Source of the DNA: an uncultured bacterium
GTDB lineage: Bacteria; Omnitrophota; Omnitrophia; Omnitrophales; Aquincolibacteriaceae
Assembly (NCBI GenBank): GCA_964606385.1
Contig: CAZSFZ010000012.1
Coordinates: 1 to 63,030, forward strand
Direction of reading: 5' to 3'
DNA length: 63,030 nucleotides
Shown here one piece after another: positions 11,216 to 61,523 of the stretch (within the stretch, counting starts at the first letter, position 1; every line of letters begins with the position of its first letter). The position numbers and the translations under genes were made by a program. A model generated the notes under the pieces. That model did no database searches, was not told the origin of the DNA, and saw only the letters and a list, made by a program, of their open reading frames with translations.

Positions 11216-12256
11216 TTAGACTTTATTGAAAATCCAACCCAGCAACACCACCTGCGGCAGACTGATCGCGAGCATCCAGAGCGCGGTCTTGGGCCCCAGG
11301 TTCTTCCACACCAGGCCGATCTCGGTCACATCCGTCACCACCCCTCCCATCAGGAATGCGAAGGCGTTCCCGAAAGCACCCGTCTCGCGATAGATCGTGA
11401 AAGCAAGCGGCGAAGTACCTTCCGAACAGACCTCAAGAACCGTCGCAAGCGCCAGTGTGACAAGAAGCCCAAGCAGGGTCGGCCCGAAATAGTGATGGAA
11501 AATATGCTGCGGGACGAATGTCGAGACGAGGCCTCCCAGCAAAATACCGATCAGGATCCAGGGCAACACCATCACGGCGAGGTCCGTCGCCCCGCCCGTG
11601 ACCCCGCGGAACGCCTTCCAGAAATTCTGGTGGGTGAATTCGTGTTCCCGAAAACGCCGGAGGATATCCCTCCAGATCGAGAACCCCTCCTCGACCTCGA
11701 CTGAGTGACGGTTCCGTTCGATCCACCCCGCCCGATCCAGATACTGCATAAGCAATCCCGTGATCAACGCGATCGCAATCGCGCCGAAAACGATCAGAAA
11801 GGCCTTCGCGCCGAAGAAGCCGAAAAGGAGGATCGTAATGGGAAGGTTGGCCCAGGGGCTCGCCAGAAGAAAACTCACGACCGCGGGGCCCGAAGCACCT
11901 TTCTTGTGGATCTCCATCGAGATCGCGAGGATCCCGTGGCAGCAGGCGCTCATCAGGAACCCAAGGCCGACGGAATAAAAGATCGTCCGTTTCTTCGGGA
12001 TCGACAGATGCTTGGAGATATACTCCCGCGGCACATAATGATCGATCAACCCCCCGATCAAGAAGCCGGCAAGCACCGGCCAAAACATCACGCGGGCGTA
12101 ATCTCCCAACGTCTGGCGGAACGCCTCCATCGCCGGAAAAACAAACGAGGCGCCGACGAGCGCGAGCGTCAGAATGGTGACGAGAAAAAGCCCGGAAACA
12201 TACCAGGTTTTTTTCTTCTCATTCTCCCCGCAGCAACGGCAACTTTCTCCGCTCAT
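11216..12256 (-). CDS. DUF318/ArsP-family predicted metal(loid) permease
   Basis: Two repeats with MSACCHGILAI and LEVCSEGTSP; FLLASPW; multi-TM. Confidence 0.85.
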   Translation of the reverse strand: MSGESCRCCGENEKKKTWYVSGLFLVTILTLALVGASFVFPAMEAFRQTLGDYARVMFWPVLAGFLIGGLIDHYVPREYISKHLSIPKKRTIFYSVGLGFLMSACCHGILAISMEIHKKGASGPAVVSFLLASPWANLPITILLFGFFGAKAFLIVFGAIAIALITGLLMQYLDRAGWIERNRHSVEVEEGFSIWRDILRRFREHEFTHQNFWKAFRGVTGGATDLAVMVLPWILIGILLGGLVSTFVPQHIFHHYFGPTLLGLLVTLALATVLEVCSEGTSPLAFTIYRETGAFGNAFAFLMGGVVTDVTEIGLVWKNLGPKTALWMLAISLPQVVLLGWIFNKV

Positions 12257-12612
12257 CAGAGCTCCGCCTGTTCCATGTCCCTTTGCATCTCCTGCGACCT
12301 TGAATCGATAGGAACCACCGTTCCGGGCTTGGCGGCTGGCACTTTCGTTCTTTCTTCCGTGTCCATTTTGGCTATGTAGCTCATCGGGTCCGCCAAAAAC
12401 GCTTTTTCACATCCGGGGCAGCAAAGGCCATAGCGTTTGCCTTCATAAACCACAAAATGTTCTCCATCGACAGGCTCGCCCATCACCGGGCATATTTTAT
12501 TGCCCACGTCCACGATCCCGATCCCGGCCTCCTCATCGGCAGCATACCCCTGCGGCAGCACCCCCGGCATCGCGAACATGGCAAGCAACATCCATACGAT
12601 CATTTTCTTCAT
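12256..12612 (-). CDS. Exported YHS-domain protein
   Basis: Signal peptide; NKICPVMGEPV...YEGKRYGLCCPGCEKAF. Confidence 0.85.
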   Translation of the reverse strand: MKKMIVWMLLAMFAMPGVLPQGYAADEEAGIGIVDVGNKICPVMGEPVDGEHFVVYEGKRYGLCCPGCEKAFLADPMSYIAKMDTEERTKVPAAKPGTVVPIDSRSQEMQRDMEQAEL

Positions 12613-12643
12613 AACACTTCCCCCTCTTGAAATTTGAAAAACA

Positions 12644-12670
12644 GCGGACGGGGGAGGCTCCCCCGCCCGC
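12644..12670 (-). terminator. Intrinsic terminator between the Cys-rich peptide gene and the YHS gene
   Basis: GC-rich hairpin GCGGGCGGGGGAG-CC-TCCCCCGTCCGC followed by a T run on the minus strand. Confidence 0.65.
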
Positions 12671-12678
12671 TCATTTAT

Positions 12679-12828
12679 TTACTTCTTTTGACACTCACAA
12701 GGCGGGTTGCACTTGCAAGGGTCACAGTTGCAGTCTTTCATAGAGCACTGCTTACCCGCAAAAGAGACGCCCGCAAAAGCTCCCGTCATTATGGCCATCG
12801 CCAGTAAGGCTGTTATAAGTTTCTTCAT
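12679..12828 (-). CDS. 49-aa secreted metallothionein-like peptide (not in ORF track)
   Basis: MKKLITALLAMAIMTGAFAGVSFA-GKQCSMKDCNCDPCKCNPPCECQKK*, with AAGGAAG upstream of the ATG; 7 Cys, three CxC. Confidence 0.8.
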   Translation of the reverse strand: MKKLITALLAMAIMTGAFAGVSFAGKQCSMKDCNCDPCKCNPPCECQKK

Positions 12829-12870
12829 GGGACTCACTTCCTTTCGTTAAAATTTAAAAAGCGCTTCGGC

Positions 12871-13296
12871 TCAAAAAGGGACTGCGGCCGGAGGCGCCCG
12901 AAAGGAAAAAGTAATATTAAGAACGTACCGTTTAAAAAATCCTGGGGAGGGTCCGAAAAGCTGTTCGTGCGAGAAAAACGGCCGGGGAACCTCCGGATAA
13001 AAACTATTTAAAAATCCCTCTTCGATCGTTACAGGCCGGGTACGGGAAGGGTTGACCGGCGAGAATTCCTTGGAAAGCACGGCCGCTTTTTCGATCCGGC
13101 ACTTTCCGCAGCATTCTTTTCGGGAAGGATCTTCGCCCTTCGCATGAGAAGCCGCGGAGTGACACCGGAGGGTTTCTGCCTGGATCGCCTTGGGAACGGA
13201 GCCGCAATCGGCGTCCACGCATTGGCAGCCCAGCGCGCCCGGAAAAGCGCTGAAAACGCACACGGCCATGAACAGCGACAACGATTTCTTCTTCAT
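12871..13296 (-). CDS. DUF2946/CruR-like Cys-containing exported protein with C-terminal RAPP motif
   Basis: Signal peptide, CQC..C, CH, CCGKC, ends FSFRAPPAAVPF. Confidence 0.7.
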   Translation of the reverse strand: MKKKSLSLFMAVCVFSAFPGALGCQCVDADCGSVPKAIQAETLRCHSAASHAKGEDPSRKECCGKCRIEKAAVLSKEFSPVNPSRTRPVTIEEGFLNSFYPEVPRPFFSHEQLFGPSPGFFKRYVLNITFSFRAPPAAVPF

Positions 13297-13571
13297 TTCC
13301 GCGTTCCTTTAAAGAGCTGGTAGATCTCGTCCAGTTTGGCCTGCTGGTCTTTTTTGGACTTCCCTTCGAAGGCATGCCGGACGCAGGCGCCCAGATGGTC
13401 CTTCAGGATCCCCGCTTCCACATTTTTCAAAGCCCCGATCACGGCTTCCGCGGCATTGAGGATATCCATGCAATAACGACCTTCCTCGATCATCCTCCGG
13501 AGGCCCCGGACCTGCCCCTCGATCCGCTTGAGCGACACCAGCTTGTCCGTTTGATCCGTCCCTTTCTTCAT
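13293..13571 (-). CDS. csoR: CsoR/RcnR-family metal-sensing repressor
   Basis: LKRIEGQVRGLRRMIEEGRYCMDIL...KDHLGACV (Cys-His-Cys ligand set). Confidence 0.92.
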   Translation of the reverse strand: MKKGTDQTDKLVSLKRIEGQVRGLRRMIEEGRYCMDILNAAEAVIGALKNVEAGILKDHLGACVRHAFEGKSKKDQQAKLDEIYQLFKGTRK

Positions 13572-13603
13572 CTCGATCCTCCCTCTTCCTGTCCCAATAG
13601 TAT

Positions 13604-13622
13604 CATACCCCTGGGGGGTATG
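13604..13622. promoter_or_regulatory. CsoR-type operator
   Basis: CATACCCC-T-GGGGGGTATG (TAC-C/G tract-GTA) about 30 bp upstream of csoR. Confidence 0.8.
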
Positions 13623-13633
13623 TCAACGCTTCG

Positions 13634-49875: not shown

Positions 49876-50211
49876 TTATACCGGCATTTTCGCGATACAG
49901 GACTGGGCCCTGGCCGCGGCCTCCGACGGCACGGCGACCCCCACGCCTTTTAGCGGGTTCCCGTGAATATCCTTTTTCCCTTGCTCATAGAGAATGCACC
50001 GGATGCGCTCGTCTTCAAGCTGTTTTAAAACAAGACGGGCTTCGTCCATGGACGCGGTTTCATAAACTTGTTTCCAAAGCCCATCGCCTTCTTTTTGCGG
50101 ACGGGGATTTTGAGACGGAACTACCGCGCGCCCCGGGAAGAACTTCTCCCTTCTTGAGATAAAGTAAACGATGGCTATGGCGATCACCAGATAAAGCGCG
50201 AACATGGCCAT
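49876..50211 (-). CDS. Small membrane-anchored DUF2007-like protein
   Basis: N-terminal TM; VYETASMDEARLVLKQLEDERI...VAVP....A pattern. Confidence 0.6.
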   Translation of the reverse strand: MAMFALYLVIAIAIVYFISRREKFFPGRAVVPSQNPRPQKEGDGLWKQVYETASMDEARLVLKQLEDERIRCILYEQGKKDIHGNPLKGVGVAVPSEAAARAQSCIAKMPV

Positions 50212-50289
50212 AGCAAACTCCTTTTCTGGTATTTTGGGGGCTAAAATTCAAAGAAGCCGGCGGGATCGCATCCGGAGGTGCGCTAAAAC

Positions 50290-50363
50290 AAAAAACCGCC
50301 ACTGACTTTTTCGTCAGATGGCGGCCCGACCATCGCTTGCTCTCCGGAAATTTTCCCGGACCC
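50290..50363 (-). promoter_or_regulatory. Probable nhaA-I/DUF1646-like Na+/Li+ riboswitch with overlapping intrinsic terminator
   Basis: Minus strand GGGT-CCGG(hairpin)CCGG-AGA-GCAAGC-GAT-GGTCGGGCCGCC, whose CCGCC is also the 5' arm of terminator CCGCCATCTGAC-GAAAAA-GTCAGTGGCGG-TTTTTT. Confidence 0.62.
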
Positions 50364-50562
50364 GTTTCAGATTTAGAGTCGCATTTTGTCCTGTTCCCTC
50401 AAGAAGGTCAAGCGTTATCGGCAGCTTGAGTGCTCAGCTGACCTGGGGGTCAGGCTCGTCTCAATTCCCAAGATGGCTCCCCCGGATGGGCTACAGCAAA
50501 CTGATTGTAAACTCGGCCCCGCACGCAGGAAGGCATCGGTTTCATACTGATTAAGGGTAAAA

Positions 50563-50600
50563 TAAAAATGCCGAAGACCTGAAGGCCTCCGGCATTTTTT
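50563..50600. terminator. Bidirectional terminator, presumed original tRNA-Asn terminator
   Basis: AAAAATGCCG-AAGACCTGAAGGCCTC-CGGCATTTTT directly beside the left att repeat. Confidence 0.8.
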
Positions 50601-50603
50601 ATA

Positions 50604-50615
50604 AATGGCTCCCCC
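50604..50615. repeat. att core, left junction
   Basis: AATGGCTCCCCC, antisense of GGGGGAGCCA(TT). Confidence 0.88.
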
Positions 50616-50711
50616 TGTTAGACGCATTTAAGAACCCTACTCCTGACTTCAAACTGATAATAAACGCATTAGGAGAGCAGTTCAAAAACACTTTCGTCCT
50701 TGCTGCTTAGC

Positions 50712-52523
50712 CTACTTGAACTTGGAAAGTTCCGTATAAACTTCCATGAAAAGGGGCGAACCCGTAAAGGACAAAGGGGACACTGGCCCAAAAAACATAA
50801 ATGGGAATTTACCGTTACTGCTAGGATCGATAAATGATTTGTATAATTGAATCGCTGAAGGATTGTTTACGAGCTCGGAAACCTTTTTCAATTCTGACCC
50901 TGAGGTGAGCCCATACCCGAATCCGAAAATGCGCATTTGTTTCAAAATTTCATCATTCAAAGATTCCAATGTTTGCGTGATAAACATGTAACCAATGCCA
51001 TATTTCCTTGTAGTTCTTACGGAATTGATGATTTCCCTTGTAAGTTCTTTTATTCTTTCGTCGAGCGCTCCCTCAGAGATAAATTTGTGCGCTTCATCCA
51101 TAACGATCAGGCAATTAGCCCGTTCGTTCTTGGCGTATAAATCAGCGCCAACTTCCACGACCTTGCACTCGATCACTTTTATAAACAATGCCTGCACATT
51201 CTCGTTCTCAATTTCACCTGCTTTTGCGCCACTAACATCCAATACGATAAAATTTCCCTTCTCTTTGACGATTTTATGCACTAAATCGTCCACAGACAGC
51301 TTAGTTTGTCCGGAAGCCTTTGTTTTCTTGAAGAAGTCTAAAGCGGCGTTCCATTTTTTGAGAACCGATGTCTGAGTAGCTAAATTAGCTAGTACCTCTT
51401 GGCATCGTCCGAGAAGTCGGTTTCTTGTTGCAGTCGTTCCATAAATCGCTTCAACGTATACCGTGAACGTTTTTCCTTGCCTCGTTTCATCTTGGCTTAA
51501 AGTAACAAAACGAGTAAGAAGATCCCTAAGCAATGCCGTGCTATCTGTAATGCTGTTCAGATTAAAGGAAGGGTTATTGGCTCTCCCGAAGAGATAATCC
51601 ACCACGGCATCGCGCGCCGCCTCTATTTTATCTTCCGTGTACATTGGCCGAAAAGCATCTTCAATGAAGCCAAGATTGGTAAGCAACTGTCCGAGAATTT
51701 CAAATTCTTTTCCCGGTAAATAGATGTCCGAAAGGATTTCGTACTTTGCGTACTTCATTCCCGCGGCAGTAATTCGAGTTTCCAGCTTTGTACCACCCGG
51801 AAGTAATTCTTGGTCGGAATAAAACTGCCTCTGGGGATCAAGAACAAGAATGCTCATGCTTTTCTTGTTTTTTGCGTAGCCCAAAAGAGTATAAGCAGCT
51901 GTTACGGTTTTGCCTGAACCGGTTTTACCAAAAATTCCTATATGATAAGCATCGCCAGCCCCCGCTTCCCGTATTGCTGGATCAGTTTTCCCAAAATGCT
52001 TGAACCAAAACGGTAAATCCACATCGGTGCCATAAACCTTCCCCATATAGGTAATCTCAGTTTCATGGGGCTTCATTAATGAAGTCATTACTTCATTAGT
52101 CATCTTACCAACTTTTTCTCCCGTAGAGGGGGAGGTTCCAAGGATGTATCCGATGGGCGCCGCATCATTCAGAGCATAACAGGCTTGGACACTGATGGTA
52201 GCAACACGGTTATCTGCCGTTCCGCTCAGATGCGGAAGTTTTCCATGCCGCTTAATTACGCCCTTAAAAGACGGATCTTCATGCCAACGGTTCTGTGTCT
52301 CAATTGAGATAATTTGCCCGATAACAAGAATGGGCCAGCCGTCTTCTTCTACAATGACATGAACCATTTGCCCCAATGCTCTTTGAGCCTTACTCTTTTC
52401 AGAAATATCTATCGTAATGTCAAGAGTAGTACTGGGCGAACCCGTGATTCCTAGGGTTGCGGTGCCCTCTTTCTTGATAATGTCGAGAAGCTCTTGGGAA
52501 ACAGTTTTCCGGGATTGTTCCAT
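50712..52523 (-). CDS. herA: HerA-family ATPase/helicase (HAS barrel + DUF87-type core)
   Basis: HIGIFGKTGSGKT, LIVMDEAHKF, RKYGIGYMFITQ; N-terminal GQMVHV..ILVIGQI. Confidence 0.88.
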   Translation of the reverse strand: MEQSRKTVSQELLDIIKKEGTATLGITGSPSTTLDITIDISEKSKAQRALGQMVHVIVEEDGWPILVIGQIISIETQNRWHEDPSFKGVIKRHGKLPHLSGTADNRVATISVQACYALNDAAPIGYILGTSPSTGEKVGKMTNEVMTSLMKPHETEITYMGKVYGTDVDLPFWFKHFGKTDPAIREAGAGDAYHIGIFGKTGSGKTVTAAYTLLGYAKNKKSMSILVLDPQRQFYSDQELLPGGTKLETRITAAGMKYAKYEILSDIYLPGKEFEILGQLLTNLGFIEDAFRPMYTEDKIEAARDAVVDYLFGRANNPSFNLNSITDSTALLRDLLTRFVTLSQDETRQGKTFTVYVEAIYGTTATRNRLLGRCQEVLANLATQTSVLKKWNAALDFFKKTKASGQTKLSVDDLVHKIVKEKGNFIVLDVSGAKAGEIENENVQALFIKVIECKVVEVGADLYAKNERANCLIVMDEAHKFISEGALDERIKELTREIINSVRTTRKYGIGYMFITQTLESLNDEILKQMRIFGFGYGLTSGSELKKVSELVNNPSAIQLYKSFIDPSSNGKFPFMFFGPVSPLSFTGSPLFMEVYTELSKFK

Positions 52524-52528
52524 GTGCC

Positions 52529-53737
52529 TTAAGTCCTATAGTTAAACAACAAGTTGAATTTACCCTTATCGATTTTTAAATCTTCTGAGAGCTTAATGGC
52601 TTCTTGAATAGCGAACATACCACCAGAGATACTTTTCGCCATGAGGTCTACTAAAAATTGAGGATAGGGTTCTCGGATTTCCGGGAAAACAATCTGCTTT
52701 TTAAGACTAAGCAAGCATGTCTCAAGCCTTTTTTGATCCAATGCGAGAGCTTTTTTCATTTCGATACGATAGGCTGGGCCATCTTGGTAAGGTTTAAAAT
52801 AAGTAAAATAAATCTCGGATTCTTTTTTCTTCAACGTAAAAACATCCTTTGTCCTTAGCGGATTAATTGCTTTCTTTAAAGCTTCATTAAGATCGTTCTT
52901 TTCTGGAATATTAAGATTGCAACGAATATGAAGATCGTCCCAAATTCGCTCTCTTTCATCCTGACTTTGACCCACTGGCAAAGGCTTTAGGTATTCATCT
53001 TCCGCCAAAGAAAGTGAAAAAAAAGTTCTATCATCCACCTTCACAGCGTGCTGAGCCAAGAAAGCATCCAAGACATCTCGTGAAGAGCTGTATTTGGCCA
53101 AAGCAATGATCTTTTCGTCATTAAAGGCCGCCTTGATAATTTCCGGTATATCGGGAATGATTTTCTCATAAGTTTCTTTTAAAAACTCACGGAGCGCATT
53201 CGCGTATTCCTGCGCAGAAGTGTTCTCATCTTCATTAGCGGATAGCATGCTGTTAATTTTTAAAAGTGGCGTAAAATGCGTTCCATCCATAATCCTAATT
53301 TCATGGCTTGCTCCAGCAAGAACGCTTAACTCCATCAGAAACATGATGCCTTGGCCCAAGCGAGCATTCGCTTCGTTGTGCGAAAGTGCCGTTTGCCACT
53401 GGTAATACTGATTTTTACCTTCTTCCCAACCCTTGTCTGTGTCCTCAGTTAAACCTTCCACCCCAACAGCAACGGCAAGTAAAAGATCGCTTCCTGTCAT
53501 TTTTTCAATAATTATACTTCCGTCAACAGCAACCAAAGAGTTAGAGAAAATATCGGTTTTTAGAATAGCGATTTTCCCAGTGTCCCGCAGTTCTCTAATT
53601 GCAGCCTGAATGGGTTCATCTTGGATATCAAACATTTTGTTCATTTTCTCAACTGTAACTGGAACATTATCCAAGATCTTGGCTAATAACTCGTCCGGAA
53701 GATATGCGTAGTTCCGTTGTTTTACCTCTTCGCTCAT
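52529..53737 (-). CDS. nurA: NurA-family nuclease
   Basis: LVAVDGS, IRIMDGT, ALAKYS, YPQFLVDLMAKS; ATG 53737 overlaps the upstream TGA. Confidence 0.82.
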   Translation of the reverse strand: MSEEVKQRNYAYLPDELLAKILDNVPVTVEKMNKMFDIQDEPIQAAIRELRDTGKIAILKTDIFSNSLVAVDGSIIIEKMTGSDLLLAVAVGVEGLTEDTDKGWEEGKNQYYQWQTALSHNEANARLGQGIMFLMELSVLAGASHEIRIMDGTHFTPLLKINSMLSANEDENTSAQEYANALREFLKETYEKIIPDIPEIIKAAFNDEKIIALAKYSSSRDVLDAFLAQHAVKVDDRTFFSLSLAEDEYLKPLPVGQSQDERERIWDDLHIRCNLNIPEKNDLNEALKKAINPLRTKDVFTLKKKESEIYFTYFKPYQDGPAYRIEMKKALALDQKRLETCLLSLKKQIVFPEIREPYPQFLVDLMAKSISGGMFAIQEAIKLSEDLKIDKGKFNLLFNYRT

Positions 53738-54891
53738 AAAGTTTCCTGAATTATATTTTTGCACTTACGAAGGTTGTAAAAGATTTGCCGTTTAAAAGAT
53801 TCCGCGTTAAAACGTTGGAAGTTTTCATTTTTTTGTATGCGTGGTAAAGCCCACCGGTTTTTCCAAAAGTCTGATAGCTCTTCAATGGTGCGATGGTGCC
53901 ACAAGGGCCTCACGTCATTTTGAATTACGTTCTTCAAATTTTTAGCGAAAGGGAAAATATAAAGGGCGCGTTTAACTCCGTGATCAACTCCGTTTGTAAT
54001 TCCTAATTTTTCTAATGCTTTGTCAATTAATCGCATTTTGCGAGAAGGCCCATTCCCAAAGCCCCGGTCTAGCTGACCATCTTCTTGTTCTAAAAAGGAA
54101 ACCATTTGCTCATAGAGCGTATTGGGAATGTGAAAGGAACCGCTGCCGTTTGTATAGCCAATAAATTCTGCGATTGGAAACCCCGCATATTTTAATCGAT
54201 TGTAAACACTGCTTTTGCCATAAGCCCCAGTAGTTGTTATAAACAGAAGCCGGGAAGGTAGGTTTCTTTCTTTGATAATAGTTTTTTGGTTCTTATATTT
54301 TTTTTCAAATGTTTCTCTTACGATCTCTGCTGTCATCAAGGAAGCAACAAGTTTTCCCCCGAGGATTGAATTATATGGAGGCAGTGCGCCTAAACGCTGA
54401 GCGCTCAAGGATTGATTTACCCAATAATCTCTTTCCTTATGCGTAATGCCTAAATGTTGATCCCGAACGCTCCAGCTTAAAATCGGGCTTTGAAGACCAA
54501 TTAAACCTATGGGCGCATTGTGGTAATCATCCCAAACAATGAATCGCATTTGGCGGCCGTAGGCCGGATCATAAGGCAAACTCCACCAGACTAAATTCCA
54601 CCAACGAAATAGATCTGCAGTACCTGTTTTTGAGTCTACTAATATTAGCCGGGGTTTTATATTTGCTACATTCAAATCACGGCCATTGAGAATTAGATTC
54701 TTATTTTTTTTTAGATATTCGCGGATAAATTCTTCATGAGAGACTATACGTTCTGCCTTGGCGAGGGAATGAACTGCTCTTCTTGATTGGCGGGTATCTT
54801 TTTTTAAAGTAAATCCGTTTTTCGCAAGCGAATAGCCTTGCTTTTCAACGAGAAAGCGTAATTTCTTTTTTAGACTTGCAGCAGCTATCAT
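53734..54891 (-). CDS. DUF4338 / Druantia DruA-like protein
   Basis: WSLPYDPAYGRQMRFIVWD, IGLIGLQSP, RD..LG, RLGALPPYNSILGGKLVA, LFITTTGAYGKSSVYNRL, GYTNGSGSFH. Confidence 0.8.
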   Translation of the reverse strand: MIAAASLKKKLRFLVEKQGYSLAKNGFTLKKDTRQSRRAVHSLAKAERIVSHEEFIREYLKKNKNLILNGRDLNVANIKPRLILVDSKTGTADLFRWWNLVWWSLPYDPAYGRQMRFIVWDDYHNAPIGLIGLQSPILSWSVRDQHLGITHKERDYWVNQSLSAQRLGALPPYNSILGGKLVASLMTAEIVRETFEKKYKNQKTIIKERNLPSRLLFITTTGAYGKSSVYNRLKYAGFPIAEFIGYTNGSGSFHIPNTLYEQMVSFLEQEDGQLDRGFGNGPSRKMRLIDKALEKLGITNGVDHGVKRALYIFPFAKNLKNVIQNDVRPLWHHRTIEELSDFWKNRWALPRIQKNENFQRFNAESFKRQIFYNLRKCKNIIQETL

Positions 54892-55006
54892 TTATTACCT
54901 AACATTTGAATCTGTAATTAGATAGCGAATTATACTACTATTATTGGTGCAGACCCATGATTTTCCAATCCATGGGTTCTTTTTCAAAGAGGAAAATATC
55001 AATAGA

Positions 55007-55978
55007 TCAACCCTTGTGCGGAACCGCTTTTTGAAACAAAATTCGGTTGTTCCGGGTTGCCCAAAAGGCTTGCTGACGCTGACCATCGGTAAAGCAAGCG
55101 TAGTGCTCAGGCGAAGATAAAACTACCGAATAGGCGCTCCGAGTTAACTGTTCCGCCTGCAGGACGATCCACCAATAGGACTTCCAGATCGTATCCCCAT
55201 CCCCCAAATCCTTCAGATGGTCCAAGCGAGACTTGAGAAAGAAAATATTGTTAATGATCGCAGCCGCCTTACTCGGCGACAAGAGCTTGGGCTGGTCCTG
55301 AGGCCAGAAACACTTGATCCGGGATAGAAAATATTCTTTCTGCCGCCCTTCCGGTGAGCAGATAAGCGCCTCCAGTGCCAGAATGAAGCAAGTCAACCGG
55401 TGCCGAATGTCGTATTCTTGCAACCCACGACAAAAAAGATCCACCCCTTCCATGAAACGCTTGCTTCGATCACAAGCCTCCTTACCGCAATGCAATGGGA
55501 TCAGCTTAGCTGCGAAATCGGTCCACCGGTAAAAGATCTCTCGGGTCAAAGGACGATCATTCTTGCCGGAGCCTTCTGTGTCGAACCAGCCAGACTCTTT
55601 AAAAGACTCACTAAGCTGCCAAATCCCGCTCTCAAGGCGGCTATACAAGAAATAAGCCTCTAGGTGACACCCAAAAGAAAAGGCGATCTTAAGGGCCTGC
55701 CAGTAGTCAGAAGGCCAAGAAAGCGCCTTTCCATCATCAGGGATATCCTTTTCAACCGTTACGACCCATTGGCGCGTATGGCAAAAAGAATCAACATGCT
55801 GCTCCCATCCCCGTGTTCCCAGCCGGGCCTTCCACTCTTCGCGCGCGAAGGGCGCCATGAAAGCATCTATGTCTTTAACAAAATCGATCGACACACCCGG
55901 GGCAACGTCAAAATGGTCTGCTCCGGTCTCGTTTGGCGCGTCAGTCTGTATAATTAAAAGTCCGATCGCTTTATTCAT
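55007..55978 (-). CDS. HEPN (ApeA/Apea-like C-terminal) domain protein
   Basis: RLTCFILALEALI ... IFFLKSRLDH; the HEPN Rx4H position reads KSRLDH. Confidence 0.5.
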   Translation of the reverse strand: MNKAIGLLIIQTDAPNETGADHFDVAPGVSIDFVKDIDAFMAPFAREEWKARLGTRGWEQHVDSFCHTRQWVVTVEKDIPDDGKALSWPSDYWQALKIAFSFGCHLEAYFLYSRLESGIWQLSESFKESGWFDTEGSGKNDRPLTREIFYRWTDFAAKLIPLHCGKEACDRSKRFMEGVDLFCRGLQEYDIRHRLTCFILALEALICSPEGRQKEYFLSRIKCFWPQDQPKLLSPSKAAAIINNIFFLKSRLDHLKDLGDGDTIWKSYWWIVLQAEQLTRSAYSVVLSSPEHYACFTDGQRQQAFWATRNNRILFQKAVPHKG

Positions 55979-56008
55979 GCGGGCGCTCTCGAATTAACTG
56001 GGGGAGGA

Positions 56009-56587
56009 TTATATAATTTTCAGCTTACTAAGTATCAACAAAAGAAGATAGATGCTGCCAAGAATAAGGGCGATTTTAATAAGGGCGTCCTTTGAAGACG
56101 CAACATCCTTGATGAATTTGAGCAGCTTCAGGGTCGTAGGCTTGAGTGATTCGTCGATCGCAGAGCTGAGCGATTTCAGTATCACTGGCCGTTCACCGAG
56201 ATAACGAATAAAAATAAATAGCGCAACAAGAATAAATACTGCTAAAACCATTCGAGGAGAAATCTCCAAAACTTCAAATATTTTGCGAGCTTTTTCCCTT
56301 CTGCCTCGGTAGGCTTCCAAAGACATATTATTGCGTTTAGCGTTCAGAGAATCCTTGGCTATGTCTTCTTTGGCGAAAACGTCATATATGTTTTCGTTTT
56401 GTCGAATCGCAGGCGGGGTTACCGCTGCCTCAGACCCTTCAATCGCGGGTTGAAGACCAAAGAAATGTTTAGCAATGCGTTCTTCCCCAAAGCTGGAGGA
56501 AATAATTAGCAGGCAAAAAAAGACAGCCCCGAGCGTCCATAAAACGTAAAAGAATTTTTTGTGCTTGGTTAGGAAGGGATCGGTCAT
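56009..56587 (-). CDS. Hypothetical membrane protein
   Basis: Three hydrophobic segments; start placed at MTDPFL, overlapping the upstream stop. Confidence 0.55.
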   Translation of the reverse strand: MTDPFLTKHKKFFYVLWTLGAVFFCLLIISSSFGEERIAKHFFGLQPAIEGSEAAVTPPAIRQNENIYDVFAKEDIAKDSLNAKRNNMSLEAYRGRREKARKIFEVLEISPRMVLAVFILVALFIFIRYLGERPVILKSLSSAIDESLKPTTLKLLKFIKDVASSKDALIKIALILGSIYLLLLILSKLKII

Positions 56588-57057
56588 ACGCCCCTTGTCA
56601 AAATCGCCTGCTCTCCAAAAGTCTGTTTTACCCTTTTGGAGAATTTGAAATACAAAAACCAAACAGAGGCTGTAAACACGGTCATAATCCTGCCGATAAT
56701 GAAATTGCTTAATGCACCATTTGAGGGGATAGTCTTAGTAAATACTAAAAAGAAACAAGCTGTCAGGGAAAGCGTGCAAGCAATCACGCCGAAAAGGAGT
56801 ACCCGCTTCGCTTGGCACGCCGCAGTGGGTTTAAGTTTGAACAATCGATAGGCAACTATGAGCTGGAAAGCGCCATACCCCATAATCGCTACCGCATCTA
56901 GCATGAGATAGGTCATCATGACTGACCATGATTTTGAAAGCACCAAATCGTTGAGCAAAGATCCGCTGCGAAAAAAATTCAATATCCCGCCTAAACCACA
57001 TACAAAGACAAAAAAAGCAAGCCATCCACCAATATGCGTATAACGTACTTCGTTCAT
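56584..57057 (-). CDS. DUF2569-like membrane protein
   Basis: IGGWL at N-terminus; W..YF..SKRVK.TF at C-terminus. Confidence 0.75.
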   Translation of the reverse strand: MNEVRYTHIGGWLAFFVFVCGLGGILNFFRSGSLLNDLVLSKSWSVMMTYLMLDAVAIMGYGAFQLIVAYRLFKLKPTAACQAKRVLLFGVIACTLSLTACFFLVFTKTIPSNGALSNFIIGRIMTVFTASVWFLYFKFSKRVKQTFGEQAILTRGV

Positions 57058-57089
57058 GACGTCCTCCTTCGCCTCGGATGCGTATGGCG

Positions 57090-57569
57090 CTACTGAAATA
57101 TCTTTTTATTTGGATCTTGGATATTTGATTCGGTGTAGATGTAATTGCGCATAGACTTGAAAATCTCTTGCGGCCAGCTCTTCTCGGTCATATCGCCCCA
57201 GAAACCAAGATCTTTTGACCCTTGAACAAGGATCTTTACGGAGCTGCCATCCGGCTCCTCTTTGATGTAAACGCCTGCGACAATGTTCCAATCGTATTTC
57301 GTCATTCCGTGTTCCCCGATCGCAACGGCTTCATCGTAGTTGGCTCTCTTGATTGTAAAACCGGCATCGGAAAGCCCAGATTTGGCAGCAAGGTAGGCGG
57401 TGCGCTTATCGACACCCTTCAGAAAAAAAACTTCTTCATACTTCGACCAACCGGTTCGGCCCTCATTGGCCGGATTAAAATTGACGTTTCGCGCAGATTG
57501 GGGCATGGAATTGATTGAGGTACAGCCGGTGAGCAAAATAAGCGAAAGTAAAAAAAGCGTGCTTTTCAT
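57090..57569 (-). CDS. Lipoprotein of unknown function
   Basis: Lipobox LLTGC. Confidence 0.75.
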   Translation of the reverse strand: MKSTLFLLSLILLTGCTSINSMPQSARNVNFNPANEGRTGWSKYEEVFFLKGVDKRTAYLAAKSGLSDAGFTIKRANYDEAVAIGEHGMTKYDWNIVAGVYIKEEPDGSSVKILVQGSKDLGFWGDMTEKSWPQEIFKSMRNYIYTESNIQDPNKKIFQ

Positions 57570-57580
57570 GTAGGAATTTT

Positions 57581-57640
57581 ACCATCTATGGATGGTTTTT
57601 GGAAGAGCTGCAAGATCCCATAATACCATCCATGGATGGG
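57581..57640. promoter_or_regulatory. Paired palindromic operators in the lipoprotein/XRE divergent promoter
   Basis: ACCATC-TATG-GATGGT (57581-57596) and ACCATC-CATG-GATGGG (57625-57640; covers the XRE ATG). Confidence 0.65.
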
Positions 57641-57853
57641 TACATTTGTCGCAAGCTGGGAAAGCGGATAAGAGAACTAAGGGATAAGCATGACCTTACT
57701 CAAGAAGAGCTGGCTGCACGTGCAGATATTAGCTTGAAGTACCTTCAAAATCTTGAAGGGAAAAATCCAAAGAAAGCCACCGTCGTTACTTTAAGCAAGC
57801 TTGGAAAAGGTTTCGGTCTTCCTCTTTGGAAGTTTCTAAAATTCCCTCAGTAA
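57632..57853 (+). CDS. XRE-family HTH regulator (C-protein-like)
   Basis: LGKRIRELR..HDLTQEELAARADISLKYLQNLE. Confidence 0.9.
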   Translation: MDGYICRKLGKRIRELRDKHDLTQEELAARADISLKYLQNLEGKNPKKATVVTLSKLGKGFGLPLWKFLKFPQ

Positions 57854-58160
57854 GCAGGTTAATTCTTTCCTCAAGATCCATTGGGCTAACCGTAGGTTCC
57901 GAATTTGCTAGAGATCCCATCCTTATTTCACTCTCGTTGTACTGAGGCGGTTTCCCCCAACCCCGATCCAGCAATGCGAGAGATGCCTGAATACGTGCCG
58001 CTTTAGTCGATTTCGGATCGTTCATGATCTCGACCAACGTGTTGATAGCCGCTTCTGTGTGCTCCCTCGCCTTATCCCTGATCGTTATGGCTACCTTAGG
58101 ACGTCCATTCGGATTACCCGATTGTCCCGGTTTAAACATTCCTGCGTGTCTATTCTCCAT
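57786..58160 (-). CDS. DUF5681-domain protein (terminase small-subunit-like N-terminus)
   Basis: FKPGQSGNPNGRPK; LLDRGWGKP; GGAGG RBS before ATG 58160. Confidence 0.75.
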   Translation of the reverse strand: MENRHAGMFKPGQSGNPNGRPKVAITIRDKAREHTEAAINTLVEIMNDPKSTKAARIQASLALLDRGWGKPPQYNESEIRMGSLANSEPTVSPMDLEERINLLTEGILETSKEEDRNLFQACLK

Positions 58161-58228
58161 TGTCCCCACCTCCATGGATATTCTATACTAGTACATTAAA
58201 TTCTTGGATAAGAAAGATGTGGTGATTA

Positions 58229-58864
58229 GTGGAAAAAGGCAATGAGAGATTCGACAGAGAACAGGCTGAGAGAAAACAGGCTTGGGACATACTCCAAAAC
58301 ATCCCTGAATTTATAGCAGACCGTAAAAAAGCCAGTGAATTTAATAAAATCAAAGACCAAAACAAAATCAAACAACTGAAAAAGAAATGGGGCTTTTATC
58401 CTCTAGAAGATATTTTAGAATTCACTGACGCCTTTTCAAAATACTCGGTCATAGCGAATCGGTGGGGAAAAGCAGTCGATTTCCATGGCGTAGATATGTT
58501 TTCATTAAACGCTTCTGAGCAATTGGTTGCCCCCGAAGGAAGTCCATGCAAGGGCAAATCCCTCCTTCATAAAATCGATGTCACCATCGATATAACAAGA
58601 TCGGACAGCGCTATTTTGGATGAATTAAGAACAGGAATTGATAGCATACGACGCATTTTTAAAACAAAAATAACGCCAAACAAAAAGCATGACCATTTGG
58701 AATTCTTGATAGGTTTATTGATCGGCATCGGTCTAACAGACGCTGAAATACACGAGCGGCTCACGCCACGCAAGCTATTAAAGCTTGCCTATGATCATGG
58801 GCAGCGAAAATCCCACCGAGAAAAAATTCAAGAACGGTTGAAAACTAGGCGGAAAAAAGTTTAA
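58229..58864 (+). CDS. Hypothetical protein
   Basis: 211-aa open frame; no recognised motif. Confidence 0.5.
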   Translation: MEKGNERFDREQAERKQAWDILQNIPEFIADRKKASEFNKIKDQNKIKQLKKKWGFYPLEDILEFTDAFSKYSVIANRWGKAVDFHGVDMFSLNASEQLVAPEGSPCKGKSLLHKIDVTIDITRSDSAILDELRTGIDSIRRIFKTKITPNKKHDHLEFLIGLLIGIGLTDAEIHERLTPRKLLKLAYDHGQRKSHREKIQERLKTRRKKV

Positions 58865-58914
58865 TTTCTTTCCGCTCCACAGCAGCATTCCTTGCCATTT
58901 AAGATTGTCGCATT

Positions 58915-59244
58915 ATGGAAAACGCGGCAATCAACTTATCAGATATTCAGATCATTCCAATCAAGCCTCGCGATGGCCTTTTGGCCTTCGTATCTTTCCT
59001 ACTTAATAGCCAGTTTTTCTGCGGGAATATAGCTATTCACTCCCGCCCTGATGGCAATCTCAGACTTGTTTATCCGCAAAAACTTCTTCCGAATGGAAAA
59101 ACCATTAACTGTTTTCATCCCGTGGATCAGCAGGTAGCAAATACAGTTTTAGAACAGGTTTCAGATGCTTATCTGCACCTTATTTCAAAATGTGGCCAAA
59201 ATGCGACTATTTGTGAGGATCGAGATGAGACCCTTCGAAAATAA
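58915..59244 (+). CDS. SpoVG-like nucleic-acid-binding protein
   Basis: IQIIPI..GLLAFVSF.L...F....IAI....DG.L.LVYP......FHPV pattern. Confidence 0.7.
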   Translation: MENAAINLSDIQIIPIKPRDGLLAFVSFLLNSQFFCGNIAIHSRPDGNLRLVYPQKLLPNGKTINCFHPVDQQVANTVLEQVSDAYLHLISKCGQNATICEDRDETLRK

Positions 59245-61195
59245 TCCCCCATTGAAACCGCAGCACACCACGAACAGCGCAAATATTCCTGAGGAATTGA
59301 AAAAGCTCTCTCAATGGGTCGGCTTCAATTTTGAGTGGGATGCAAAAAGAAAGAAGTGGAAAAAAGTTCCATATCAAACCAATGGAAGACGGGCCAGCAC
59401 AACAAATCCGACGCATTGGAGTTCCTACAAAGAAATTGAATTTTACGCATGCTCTCTTGAAGCTGCCGATGGAATCGGTTTTGTATTTACATCAAAAGAT
59501 CCTTATTGCGGGATTGATTTAGACCATTGCGTTGATCCTACAACTAAAGAAATTTCATCATGGGCACTTAAATGGATCGAGCTATTTTCATTTTCAGGCG
59601 CTTACATGGAATATTCGCCATCTGGCACGGGGATCAAAATTTTCACAAAAGCAAAACTTCCATTCCATGGCCGAAAAAACGGCGACATAGAAATATACGA
59701 TCAGGCGCGCTATTTCACGGTTACTGGGAACGTATACGGATTATGTCAAAAAGAAATCCCAAACCAGCAAGCTGCTGTGGACCAACTCCTCGATGAGGTT
59801 TTCAGTAACCAGCCTAAAACAACCACTAATAAAATCGCGCCACTGAGCGGCAATGAATTAACGAGCGAAGAACTCAACTTGCTCATCCAAAAAGCTAAAA
59901 AAGCAGAAAATGGTGAAAAATTTTTAAAACTTTTTAACGGTGATTATGAGGATTATCACAAATCACAATCGGAGGCTGATGCCTCACTGTGTACCATGTT
60001 CGCCTTTTACACGGACTGCAATGAAATGGCGATTGATCAGTTGTTTCGAGAATCACATTTATACCGTGAAAAATGGGAGCGACCTGATTATCGGACCGGG
60101 ACAATCAGAAATGCTATCGATTTCTACAAAAAATCAAGAAACAAGCTGTTCGCTGACAGCATTGTTTCGCCAGACAAATCCCACCTCGAAAATGTTGAGC
60201 CTTTACCTCTTATCCACATAGTAGATGTAGAAGAAAAGGACTTAGAATTTCTAGTCGAAGGTTTGTGGGTTCTTGACAGTGTTGGCTTTATTTCTGCTCA
60301 GCCCAAATCTGGAAAAACATGGCTTTCGTTGGAAATTGGGATTAGCGTTGCTTCAGGCACAAACGCCTTCGGCCATTTTCCATCCAAGCGAGGAAAGGTT
60401 ATCGCGTTTAACGCGGAAGATGATCCCGCACGAGGTACGCGCCAACGCATAGCCGGTCTTTGCGCATCCAAAAAGCTGGCTCTCAAAGACATCGATTTTC
60501 ATCTTATCAATGTTCCTTCACTACTAATCGACGATACGGAGACACAAAAGCGGATTGAAAAAACTGTTAGTGATCAAAAACCCGCCCTTATCATTCTCGA
60601 TCCTCTCTTTAACTTGCATTCCAAGGATGAAGACAAATCCAAAGAATTATCAGAAATATTACATTTCTTACGTCTACTAAATCGCACTTACAAGTGTTCG
60701 ATTCTGCTTGTTTGCCATGATAAAAAACCATCTGGCAACAAGAATCAATCTACGCGACGAGAATCTCAAACGCGAGGATCAAATTCTTTGGAAGGTTGGG
60801 CCGACAATCTTATTTTTGTTGATGATGAAGACAAAACTAACGCGATTTCAAGAGTATACATACGCCACCGAAACGCACCGCTGACAGAGCCTTTTTACTT
60901 CCAGCTCCTTACGGAAACCCAAGATAAGAAAATTAAAGTAGCCGCTCTCCATAAAATGGATTCACAAGGTCTATTGTTTCAAAAAGATCTTAAGCTCCAA
61001 CAAATTATTACAACTGCTATGAGCGGAAAAGGCGCCATGCGAAGAGATGACCTCCGCAGCCAATTAAAGATTAGAAAAAACGATTTCGATGTAGCTTTTA
61101 ACGCAATGATTTGCTCCGGAGAAATCATTGAACTTGTTGATGAAAAAGATAAAAGAAAAAAGCGGTATCAATACCGGAGTTCAACGGGAACTTGA
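59225..61195 (+). CDS. Primase-polymerase / RepA-type (AAA_25) helicase fusion
   Basis: KKVPY, GIGFVF, GIDLDHC, EYSPSGTGI, EIYD..RYFTVTG; SQSEAD..L, LYREKW; AQPKSGKT, IILDPL, RGSNSL. Confidence 0.88.
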   Translation: MRPFENNPPLKPQHTTNSANIPEELKKLSQWVGFNFEWDAKRKKWKKVPYQTNGRRASTTNPTHWSSYKEIEFYACSLEAADGIGFVFTSKDPYCGIDLDHCVDPTTKEISSWALKWIELFSFSGAYMEYSPSGTGIKIFTKAKLPFHGRKNGDIEIYDQARYFTVTGNVYGLCQKEIPNQQAAVDQLLDEVFSNQPKTTTNKIAPLSGNELTSEELNLLIQKAKKAENGEKFLKLFNGDYEDYHKSQSEADASLCTMFAFYTDCNEMAIDQLFRESHLYREKWERPDYRTGTIRNAIDFYKKSRNKLFADSIVSPDKSHLENVEPLPLIHIVDVEEKDLEFLVEGLWVLDSVGFISAQPKSGKTWLSLEIGISVASGTNAFGHFPSKRGKVIAFNAEDDPARGTRQRIAGLCASKKLALKDIDFHLINVPSLLIDDTETQKRIEKTVSDQKPALIILDPLFNLHSKDEDKSKELSEILHFLRLLNRTYKCSILLVCHDKKPSGNKNQSTRRESQTRGSNSLEGWADNLIFVDDEDKTNAISRVYIRHRNAPLTEPFYFQLLTETQDKKIKVAALHKMDSQGLLFQKDLKLQQIITTAMSGKGAMRRDDLRSQLKIRKNDFDVAFNAMICSGEIIELVDEKDKRKKRYQYRSSTGT

Positions 61196-61212
61196 TACCG
61201 GAAGTGCATTAT

Positions 61213-61245
61213 TTCCAGTACCCTCCCTTATAAAGGGTACTGGAA
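61213..61245. repeat. Perfect 12-bp inverted repeat downstream of the primase-helicase
   Basis: TTCCAGTACCCT-9 nt-AGGGTACTGGAA. Confidence 0.7.
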
Positions 61246-61322
61246 TACTATATAGAGGTAATCTCTTGAGAGAGGCTCTTAAAAAGCAATTGGGCTTTTG
61301 TTACGAGGAATGGGGCGCCTCT

Positions 61323-61454
61323 GTGAATTCGCAGGAATTAGACACCTCAGCCAATTCCTTATTGTCCTTTGTGTCCCTCCTCATGGAAACTGATCAAAAG
61401 AACGGATTCCAAGTCCTAAAATCATCCTTTAATCCTAAAGATCATAATGAATGA
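61323..61454 (+). CDS. Small hypothetical protein upstream of the recombinase
   Basis: GTG start; MNSQELDTSANSLLSFVSLLMETDQKNG..., the 3' part of ORF-track 61128..61454. Confidence 0.35.
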   Translation: MNSQELDTSANSLLSFVSLLMETDQKNGFQVLKSSFNPKDHNE

Positions 61455-61523
61455 CGAGCACCACTTATTTGCATAAAATAGATACTGCTAACAGAGTGAT
61501 AACAGTAAAGAAGCGGAGAAAAT

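Follow-up and report, generated by a model that had tools for sequence, protein, structure and literature searches.

A short, predicted exported hexa-cysteine peptide encoded with the copper sensor CsoR in Omnitrophota

We analysed contig CAZSFZ010000012.1 (assembly GCA_964606385.1) of an uncultured bacterium from the Omnitrophota family Aquincolibacteriaceae over positions 1 to 63,030, a 63,030-nucleotide stretch referred to here as the window. On its minus strand, at 12679-12828, lies a 49-codon gene whose predicted product is a signal peptide followed by a very short, cysteine-rich peptide. The gene is under strong purifying selection, and the six-cysteine core of its product recurs beside independent metal sensors and fused to a YHS/TRASH metal domain. 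We think it very likely that the peptide has some metal-related role, and probable that it is a small metallothionein-like product, exported by Sec, that buffers or chaperones Cu(I) through thiolate ligands in a copper-stress response controlled by CsoR. A preliminary description of this DNA had read the product as an exported, metal-binding, metallothionein-like peptide. That reading gains comparative support from the conserved cysteine spacing, the linkage to CsoR and MerR-type regulators and the YHS/TRASH fusion; the peptide may be a sink, as the description had it, or a chaperone.

The peptide gene and its predicted product

The 49-residue open reading frame (ORF) has exactly the sequence that the preliminary description had given, read from the minus strand. 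Its features are:

12679..12828, minus strand: peptide gene, 49 codons plus stop (ORF read, orthologues, and ratio of nonsynonymous to synonymous differences, pN/pS)
12834..12844, minus strand: Shine-Dalgarno region of the peptide gene, AAAGGAAGTGA, read from the sequence; a good site, ten bases upstream
12757..12828, minus strand: predicted Sec signal peptide (residues 1-24, by heuristic rules), with the cut after SFA
12682..12756, minus strand: predicted mature peptide, 25 residues, 7 Cys, no aromatic residue, no His
12691..12732, minus strand: invariant family core C-x-C-x-P-C-x-C-x-x-P-C-x-C (invariant columns of the peptide alignment and of the Planctomycetota fusion alignment)

The ORF starts at ATG 12828 and stops at TAA 12681-12679. 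Its full translation is MKKLITALLAMAIMTGAFAGVSFAGKQCSMKDCNCDPCKCNPPCECQKK, which divides into a signal part, MKKLITALLAMAIMTGAFAGVSFA, and a mature part, GKQCSMKDCNCDPCKCNPPCECQKK. An alternative in-frame GTG at 12837 would lengthen the product to 52 residues, but that codon shares bases with the Shine-Dalgarno site, and every orthologue starts at the ATG; we therefore take ATG 12828 as the start.

By heuristic rules the N-terminus is laid out as a Sec signal with n, h and c regions: it opens with MKK, continues with a 12-residue hydrophobic core (mean Kyte-Doolittle value 2.35) and ends after residue 24 in an A-x-A-type site, SFA/GKQ (the slash marks the predicted cut), with small residues at -3 and -1. 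This predicted site is kept as A[FL]A/[GE]KQ in 9/9 Omnitrophota-type sequences. The 24-residue signal and 25-residue cysteine-rich part of the preliminary description hold up on this check, as does its count of seven cysteines. The mature 25-mer consists of 7 Cys (28%), 5 Lys, 3 Pro and other residues, includes three C-x-C pairs and lacks Phe, Tyr, Trp and His; the traits by which metallothioneins are usually recognised (small size, many cysteines, C-x-C motifs, few or no aromatic residues) are all present in the predicted mature form. Most relatives are shorter, with 20 residues after the predicted cut rather than 25, and GKQCQCKPCKCNPPCECAKK is another of the predicted mature forms. A DNA pattern for the six-cysteine core has one match in the window and none in 100 shuffles.

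Conservation and selection

Homologues were collected by a HMMER scan of 1.84 billion representative proteins, by scanning genomes and metagenomes with back-translated patterns, and from contigs reached through homologues of the neighbouring YHS gene. Members from the genome collection are those found among the matches listed for the pattern; a tighter pattern was used for metagenomes. Loci and proteins are cited by our own labels (L or P with a number). The HMMER scan gave two true homologues with the same cysteine spacing: P0001, from a metagenome-assembled genome of Candidatus Omnitrophota, and the more distant P0002. Our alignment (A5) holds nine distinct Omnitrophota-type sequences and two distant stand-alone members. 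Both the reading frame and the core are kept in all nine Omnitrophota-type orthologues. The Shine-Dalgarno sequence GAAAGGAAGTGA stands upstream of 5/6 orthologues examined, the sixth (L139) having GGAAGGAGAG instead, and an in-frame extension of five codons, KQC-x4-C, which adds the seventh cysteine, is common to the window, L177 and L179.

In a Nei-Gojobori comparison of six orthologues, synonymous differences (pS) were about 0.65 in both halves of the gene, and pN/pS was 0.09 in the mature part versus 0.34 in the signal part; TGC and TGT exchange freely among the six. Judged from these sequences, the substitution pattern is the signature of a translated gene in which the exported part is the functional part, and it is close to certain that the ORF is a real gene.

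Annotation has mostly passed it over, and the statement in the preliminary description that the gene was unannotated is borne out. Three identical contigs exist in other samples (they carry no information on selection), and the gene is called in only one of them. The exact peptide is missing from a collection of 15 billion proteins in which both neighbours from the same contig are present. No gene is called at the corresponding position in L001 and L179, and antisense ORFs are called over it in L177 (2728-2898, 56 residues) and L181 (2793-3002, 69 residues). Where homologues are annotated, they carry the name 'hypothetical protein'. Pfam (2025), NCBIfam (2026), PDB and Rfam hold no family for the peptide, and the NCBIfam matches that do occur (ExtJ and others) cover the signal peptide only. 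A word-indexed protein search with the peptide returned nothing; since P0001 is in that collection, the index seems blind to such short proteins.

Association with a CsoR-type copper sensor

The peptide gene is the third in a co-directional row, behind csoR and a gene for a 141-residue protein; two further co-directional genes follow after a hairpin. The features of this row, in the order of transcription, are:

13597..13626, minus strand: sigma-70-type promoter, TTGACA, 18 nucleotides, extended -10 TG-TACTAT (10/12 matches plus the TG extension)
13606..13620, no strand assigned: predicted CsoR operator, pseudopalindrome TACCCCCCAGGGGTA, TAC-X9-GTA, between -35 and -10 (fits the published consensus)
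13293..13571, minus strand: csoR, 92-residue copper-sensing repressor with C34, H58 and C62 (Pfam PF02583, E = 6e-24)
12871..13296, minus strand: 141-residue Cys-rich protein with signal peptide and lipobox-like ..GALG/C; its start overlaps the csoR stop
12633..12671, minus strand: intrinsic-terminator-like GC-rich hairpin and T-run, between the peptide and YHS genes
12256..12612, minus strand: 118-residue exported YHS/TRASH-domain protein (Pfam YHS PF04945, E = 5e-7)
11216..12256, minus strand: 346-residue ArsP_1-type permease with N-terminus MSGESCRCCGE (Pfam PF03773, E = 4e-36); its start overlaps the YHS stop

The preliminary description had placed the peptide in a cluster led by a CsoR operator, and a canonical box does lie in the promoter: the string at 13626-13597 reads TTGACA-TACCCCCCAGGGGTA-TGATACTAT. 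The experimentally defined CsoR operator is TAC-X9-GTA with the consensus ATATACCCCTNAGGGGTATAT (PMC3902906), and the peptide gene sits in a unit headed by just such an element, a G-tract pseudopalindrome overlapping the promoter, which at the level of sequence is the mark of a CsoR regulon. The box pattern matches once in the 63-kb window and never in 100 shuffles. Orthologous boxes are found in L139, L143, L173, L177, L179 and L181, and the promoter architecture is kept in L139, L143 and L173. The repressor has the Cu(I) ligand set x-C-H-C and is without the N-terminal His typical of InrS and RcnR. Its best matches in PDB are the Cu-CsoR structures 4M1P (Geobacillus) and 4ADZ (Streptomyces lividans), with whose ligands C34, H58 and C62 align; its top NCBIfam model is RicR, below the cut-off.

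Omnitrophota-type loci are flanked by tsaB on one side and by genes for a family 2 glycosyltransferase (GT2) and a histidine kinase on the other. The peptide is present in 8/8 distinct sampled loci that have csoR and its box (the window, L064/L152, L139, L143, L173, L177, L179 and L181); L149, a truncated contig, has the same gene order. One of the eight, L139, has csoR and the peptide gene alone between tsaB and GT2, and the operon of L179 additionally holds a gene with an HMA domain. Four loci (L178, L180, L182 and L184) carry the YHS and ArsP_1 genes at the same site without csoR or the box, and the peptide is found in 0/4 of these. At face value the chance of such a split is 1/495 (a hand count, 1/C(12,4)), a figure that we treat as descriptive because the loci are related to one another. 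Judged by this distribution, the peptide is tied to the copper sensor and not to the permease, since it accompanies the former in every csoR locus and is absent from the csoR-less loci that have the latter. The preliminary description had named homologues near csoR with conserved cysteine spacing as a check on its reading; such homologues exist, and their spacing is invariant. As a separate observation, the YHS and ArsP_1 genes of L178 and L182 lie directly behind a gene for a 1107-residue pump of the resistance-nodulation-division (RND) type in place of csoR.

Distant members and fusions to a YHS/TRASH-like domain

The two distant stand-alone members, L165 and P0002, have a signal peptide followed by CTCNPCTCEAPCPC or CNCNPCKCGTPCPC. 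In both cases the gene lies directly behind, and overlaps, a gene for a MerR-family regulator of the heavy-metal class. The L165 regulator carries CPGEIGTNEHCP as a C-terminal loop and scores about 110 bits against each of the models for MerR, CueR and ZntR. On the P0002 contig, merR and then the peptide gene are followed by genes for a CzcB/CusB-like adaptor and an RND pump.

In Planctomycetota (Phycisphaerae), eleven distinct lipoproteins of 103-108 residues fuse the peptide core to a YHS/TRASH-like domain. They begin with a lipoprotein signal (..G/C), continue after about 8 residues with C-x-C-x-P-C-T-C-x-x-P-C-P-C, and pass through a short linker into the YHS/TRASH-like part (MND.CP.SG ... 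GFCC.GCK..F). By hhalign, columns 1-44 of the fusion alignment match the peptide family (98.1%, E = 9e-14) and columns 52-107 match the Omnitrophota YHS proteins (94.9%, E = 5e-8); these scores are aided by the Cys-rich composition, and the register is exact. A word-indexed search with one of the fusion proteins found 3 relatives only. YHS/TRASH domains have been proposed to be binding modules for transition metals (copper) and occur in Cu-ATPases and an adenylyl cyclase (PMC4626032). The peptide is not itself such a domain; it is an extra cysteine module, fused in front of one in Planctomycetota and encoded beside one in Omnitrophota. Because both phyla belong to the Planctomycetes-Verrucomicrobia-Chlamydiae (PVC) group, the two arrangements form a fusion/fission pair within one superphylum, and such a pair in turn suggests that the peptide is functionally linked to the adjoining YHS protein in the window.

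The hairpin behind the peptide gene

The terminator that the preliminary description had assigned to the peptide gene was found after the stop codon, as a GC-rich stem of 13 bp with a T-run. The stem (12671-12643) starts eight bases past the stop, has 10 G-C pairs and a 3-nucleotide loop, and is followed by GTTTTTC; its folding energy is -29.8 kcal/mol, with z = -3.5 against shuffles. Post-stop GC-rich hairpins that differ in sequence occur in five loci where the YHS gene comes next (the window, L064, L143, L149 and L173). No strong hairpin follows the stop in L139 (6164-6192), where the peptide gene ends 25 nucleotides before the convergent GT2 gene. In the window the hairpin (12643-12671) ends 14 nucleotides short of the YHS Shine-Dalgarno sequence, which lies outside the stem. 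This distribution fits a predicted terminator or attenuator that closes the unit formed by csoR, the 141-residue gene and the peptide gene, and translation of the peptide may play a minor role in read-through. A promoter-like sequence, ATAACA-17-CATAAT (9/12 matches), lies at 12788-12816 on the minus strand within the signal-peptide codons; it might drive the YHS and ArsP_1 genes without CsoR, and it may equally be a chance match.

Comparison with known metallothioneins and copper proteins

As reviewed in PMC7558416, metallothioneins involved in bacterial copper handling are cytosolic, and the preliminary description had said the same of the characterised ones; envelope copper proteins mostly use Met and His, with Csp1 and CopG as Cys-based exceptions.

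The metallothioneins SmtA and BmtA (metallothionein family 14, PDB 1JJD, Pfam Metallothio_Pro) are, like the peptide, small and Cys-rich and lack an aromatic core, and they are controlled by a metal-sensing repressor, as is predicted for the peptide. SmtA is regulated by SmtB, a member of the ArsR family. The SmtA ligand block KCACEPCLCN and the peptide's DCNCDPCKCN share the pattern C-x-C-x-P-C-x-C-N, and SmtA 1JJD was the sole match of a phmmer search of PDB, which was not significant (E = 9.3). No Pfam family matches the peptide at E <= 0.1 or 1, Metallothio_Pro included. SmtA is a cytosolic protein of about 55 residues with a zinc-finger-like Zn4Cys9His2 cluster that includes His ligands (PMC7558416); unlike it, the peptide has a predicted signal sequence, a mature form of 20-25 residues and no His. 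The peptide falls outside the SmtA/BmtA family, and on present alignments it appears to represent a family of its own, new and predicted to be exported, of metallothionein-like peptides.

The CsoR paralogue RicR controls MymT. This Mycobacterium tuberculosis protein of 4.9 kDa comes from an ORF that was at first not annotated, is up-regulated by copper and has a predicted capacity of up to six Cu(I) (PMC7558416). Like MymT, the peptide is a small, overlooked Cys-rich product in a copper-sensor context, and we would predict that it too is induced by copper; MymT differs in that it has no signal peptide, is cytosolic and has another cysteine pattern, and no homology between the two was detected.

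CusF, the periplasmic Cu(I)/Ag(I) chaperone of the CusCFBA system, is a five-stranded beta-barrel whose metal site combines His and two Met with a cation-pi contact from Trp (PMC7558416). The likeness is that of a small exported component within a metal-efflux operon, and the position is analogous only in P0002; the peptide is Cys-only, far smaller and non-homologous, without a Met/His/Trp site or a match to the CusF Pfam family. Closer in chemistry are CopG, a protein with a thioredoxin fold that holds a tetranuclear Cu cluster through CxCC and aids copper resistance anaerobically, and Csp1, a Tat-exported tetramer of four-helix bundles that binds 13 Cu(I) on cysteines (PMC7558416). Both are precedents for multinuclear thiolate-bound copper outside the cytosol. 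The peptide differs from them as a chain of 20-25 residues, probably folded by its metal, with Sec-type signal features.

Proposed role

Taken together with the operator, these features suggest the following sequence of events. Surplus cytosolic Cu(I) would free CsoR from TACCCCCCAGGGGTA, so that csoR, the 141-residue gene and the peptide gene are transcribed; transcription would mostly end at the hairpin, with some read-through into the YHS and ArsP_1 genes. The precursor, at 49 residues too short for co-translational targeting, would therefore be exported by Sec post-translationally and cleaved after Ala24. The Lys-rich mature peptide of 20-25 residues, with six or seven thiolates, would then hold periplasmic Cu(I) as a multinuclear thiolate cluster, for which the six invariant cysteines would suit a Cu4S6 core. 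In this form it could buffer the copper pumped from the cytosol, hand it on, or do both; recipients could be the YHS protein, the Cys-rich lipoprotein or an efflux pump, and the hand-over would resemble the part played by CusF with its Met and His ligands. Thiols would stay reduced in the anoxic habitats from which many Omnitrophota are known. Exported copper proteins that rely on cysteine have precedents in Csp1 and CopG (PMC7558416).

A bolder version, which we offer tentatively, is that the peptide founds the first natural family of Sec-exported metallothioneins, a thiolate buffer or relay for periplasmic Cu(I) in PVC bacteria that exists free, as the constant partner of CsoR in Omnitrophota, and as a lipid-anchored YHS fusion in Planctomycetota, with a cluster of the Cu4S6 type. 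Our literature searches found no naturally exported bacterial metallothionein, which does not disprove that one exists elsewhere.

Several points weigh against a Cu(I) buffer or chaperone. The signal peptide is a prediction by rules alone. An oxidising periplasm would oxidise thiol-rich peptides, and the model requires a reducing or anoxic envelope. Metal specificity is read from the regulator only, and for the MerR-linked members the models for MerR, CueR and ZntR score alike. Resemblance to known metallothioneins does not reach significance, and Pfam has no metallothionein model that matches. The contrast of 8/8 with 0/4 is not an independent statistic, the sampled loci being related. Finally, the neighbours of the Planctomycetota fusion genes show no consistent metal theme.

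Alternative explanations

The most serious rival, and the closest in mechanism, is that the peptide acts as a sensor in cis. As CutF does for cutO in Rhodobacter capsulatus, a nascent exported chain would tune the YHS and ArsP_1 genes through copper-dependent export or translation, by way of a proline pair and the stem-loop. The likeness is to the CutF-like peptides (CutF, CopL, CruR; PMC9973294): these have a signal peptide, a Cys motif, a PP near the C-terminus (in CutF part of a proline-rich stalling motif) and a stem-loop ahead of a same-strand gene of metal homeostasis, and are often unannotated. The window peptide formally passes the rule-based filters of that study, being shorter than 150 residues, with a signal peptide, PP in the last 15 residues (NPPCEC), a Cys motif and a same-strand gene, here the YHS gene 66 nucleotides downstream (the filter allows 1 kb) beyond a strong intergenic stem-loop. 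CutF-like genes also often precede genes for CusB, CzcB or ACR_tran (PMC9973294), as P0002 does, and the hairpin is confined to loci in which YHS comes next, L139 being without it.

We nevertheless disfavour this explanation and consider it unlikely. In L139 and L165 there is no same-strand gene on which the peptide could act, and the YHS and ArsP_1 genes occur without the peptide in 4 loci. The proline pair is not kept in L165, P0002 or the fusion proteins, where x-P-C-x-C alone is kept, and in the mature fusion lipoproteins the core is N-terminal. The hairpin leaves the YHS Shine-Dalgarno sequence uncovered, and the peptide has no Pfam match to any family. CutF acts during co-translational export, and the peptide is too short for that mechanism. 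The geometry of the ribosome also argues against it. The exit tunnel holds about 30-40 residues. The first cysteine lies 17-22 residues from the C-terminus and the Cys motif spans residues 3-22 from that end, so at termination the motif would still be inside the tunnel and could not sense periplasmic copper from the ribosome.

Slightly less probable still is a metal-free, disulfide-rich secreted peptide (a signal, a toxin or a structural knot), for which the linkage to metal regulators would be incidental or reflect redox stress. The preliminary description had listed a disulfide-rich peptide among its alternatives, and we found no positive support for it. The periplasm is oxidising in many bacteria, and the product is small, predicted to be exported, and equipped with an even number (6) of invariant cysteines and with rigidifying prolines, all of which would suit disulfides. 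Repeated C-x-C spacing, on the other hand, is typical of metal-thiolate clusters and ill-suited to disulfides between adjacent cysteines, and a subclade with an odd number of cysteines exists (seven in the window, L177 and L179). Disulfides would also leave unexplained why the gene occurs with CsoR, with a MerR-type regulator alone and with a MerR-type regulator plus an RND pump, and why the core is fused to a YHS/TRASH domain; nor are there immunity, receptor or export genes nearby in the examined loci.

Thiols could instead serve redox chemistry, with the peptide reducing Cu(II) to Cu(I) or carrying sulfane sulfur or persulfide rather than storing metal. Thiols are dense in the peptide, persulfide sensors (CstR) belong to the CsoR family, and permeases of the ArsP_1 and SaoE type are tied to thiophilic chemistry. 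We regard this as improbable: the C-H-C ligands of the regulator are of the Cu type and its operator is a canonical Cu-CsoR site, no gene for a reductase or a recycling partner is present, and the contexts with MerR-type regulators and RND pumps indicate metal cations.

Very improbable is the other alternative of the preliminary description, the precursor of a ribosomally synthesised and post-translationally modified peptide (RiPP) whose N-terminus would serve a modifying enzyme as its leader. Small size, many cysteines and a hydrophobic N-terminal stretch might suggest one, but genes for radical-SAM proteins, YcaO, lanthionine synthetases, peptidases and ABC exporters are absent across roughly 12 loci, the minimal locus consists of csoR and the peptide gene, and the N-terminus has the Sec n/h/c layout with an A-x-A site, the same region carrying a lipobox in Planctomycetota.

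That the ORF is spurious or a non-coding element, with only the terminator hairpin functional, is hardly credible: it is below the usual cut-offs of gene calling, and several annotations omit it or call antisense ORFs in its place, but a pN/pS of 0.09 with near-saturated synonymous change effectively refutes the idea, the Shine-Dalgarno sequence and start are conserved, the five-codon in-frame indel is kept in a subclade, there are protein-level homologues in other phyla, and Rfam gave no match.

Implications of a Cu(I)-thiolate peptide

If the peptide is indeed a Cu(I)-thiolate buffer or chaperone, it would add a new and very small exported component, of 20-25 residues with six core cysteines and under CsoR or MerR-type control, to the metal homeostasis of the envelope, and it would show how anaerobic, uncultivated PVC bacteria handle Cu(I). 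A thiolate peptide would then serve anoxic envelopes as the Met/His proteins CusF, CopC and PcoE serve oxic ones. It would also be a minimal, easily synthesised scaffold on which Cu(I)-thiolate clusters could be studied or exploited. The free and fused forms offer the poorly understood exported YHS/TRASH proteins a partner that can be tested. For annotation there is a lesson in that most of the sampled assemblies lack a call for the gene or carry an antisense call instead, and small metal-binding effectors beside metal sensors are therefore likely to be under-counted.

Neighbouring genes and other observations

The 141-residue protein encoded between csoR and the peptide has no match in Pfam or NCBIfam. 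Its gene is found with csoR in every sampled locus but L139, and its orthologues conserve the pattern CQCVDADCG...CH...ECCGKC and a C-terminal tail, ..NTTFSFRAPP; the lipobox-like site is ..GALG/C, ..VLS/C or ..ILN/C among relatives. The 118-residue YHS protein matches PF04945 with 30.0 bits, against a gathering cut-off of 30.3. It has 80 homologues, mostly from Omnitrophota, and PF04945 is the precomputed assignment for it and for most of them.

The curated families nearest to the ArsP_1 permease are the SO_0444 Cu/Zn efflux proteins and SaoE, both below cut-off (NCBIfam NF033936, 111 bits). Permeases of the SO_0444 type are described as exporters of thiophilic metals, and in Nitratiruptor Cu and Cd induce them (bioRxiv 10.1101/2022.07.06.499078; PMC10092412). 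The cytosolic MSGESCRCCGE tail of the permease and its membrane motifs SACCHG and VCSEG are suggestive of a thiolate relay for soft metals.

Some other matches fall outside the family. The HMMER scan also gave P0003, a repetitive, Arg-rich protein of 266 residues, which we discarded because its match reflects composition, and a first scan of genomes with a DNA pattern was swamped by low-complexity CPC/CCC/CRC frames of GC-rich genomes. DUF1326 proteins of Ktedonobacteria (L022, L038, L131 and L134) carry CxCDPCxCxxPCxC near the N-terminus; they are not relatives, belonging to a different family with no signal peptide and a different context, and may represent a convergent design of metal site. 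Small, very Cys-rich ORFs of the same spacing but with no signal, for example MSATTATCENPKCTCSPCTCTLPCTCGQGAGCTNPDCSCTSCTCGPDCSCGK, occur in L136, L138, L145 and L176 (hypersaline metagenomes), in L147 and L166, in L154 and in L158; these are possible cytosolic metallothioneins, perhaps of eukaryotic origin. In L167, from a termite-gut metagenome (Ga0123353), CTCKPCNCEPPCTC is the N-terminus of a 182-codon frame whose continuation, ..NYKKRERGSFE.., looks GrpE-like by eye.

The region of the peptide gene has the GC content of its flanks. Elsewhere in the window, positions 50000-62000 have a GC content of 41-45% versus about 55% and encode a HerA-like ATPase, NurA, DruA (Druantia-type) and a primase-helicase (NrS-1 HBD and AAA_25); this stretch resembles a mobile or defence island.

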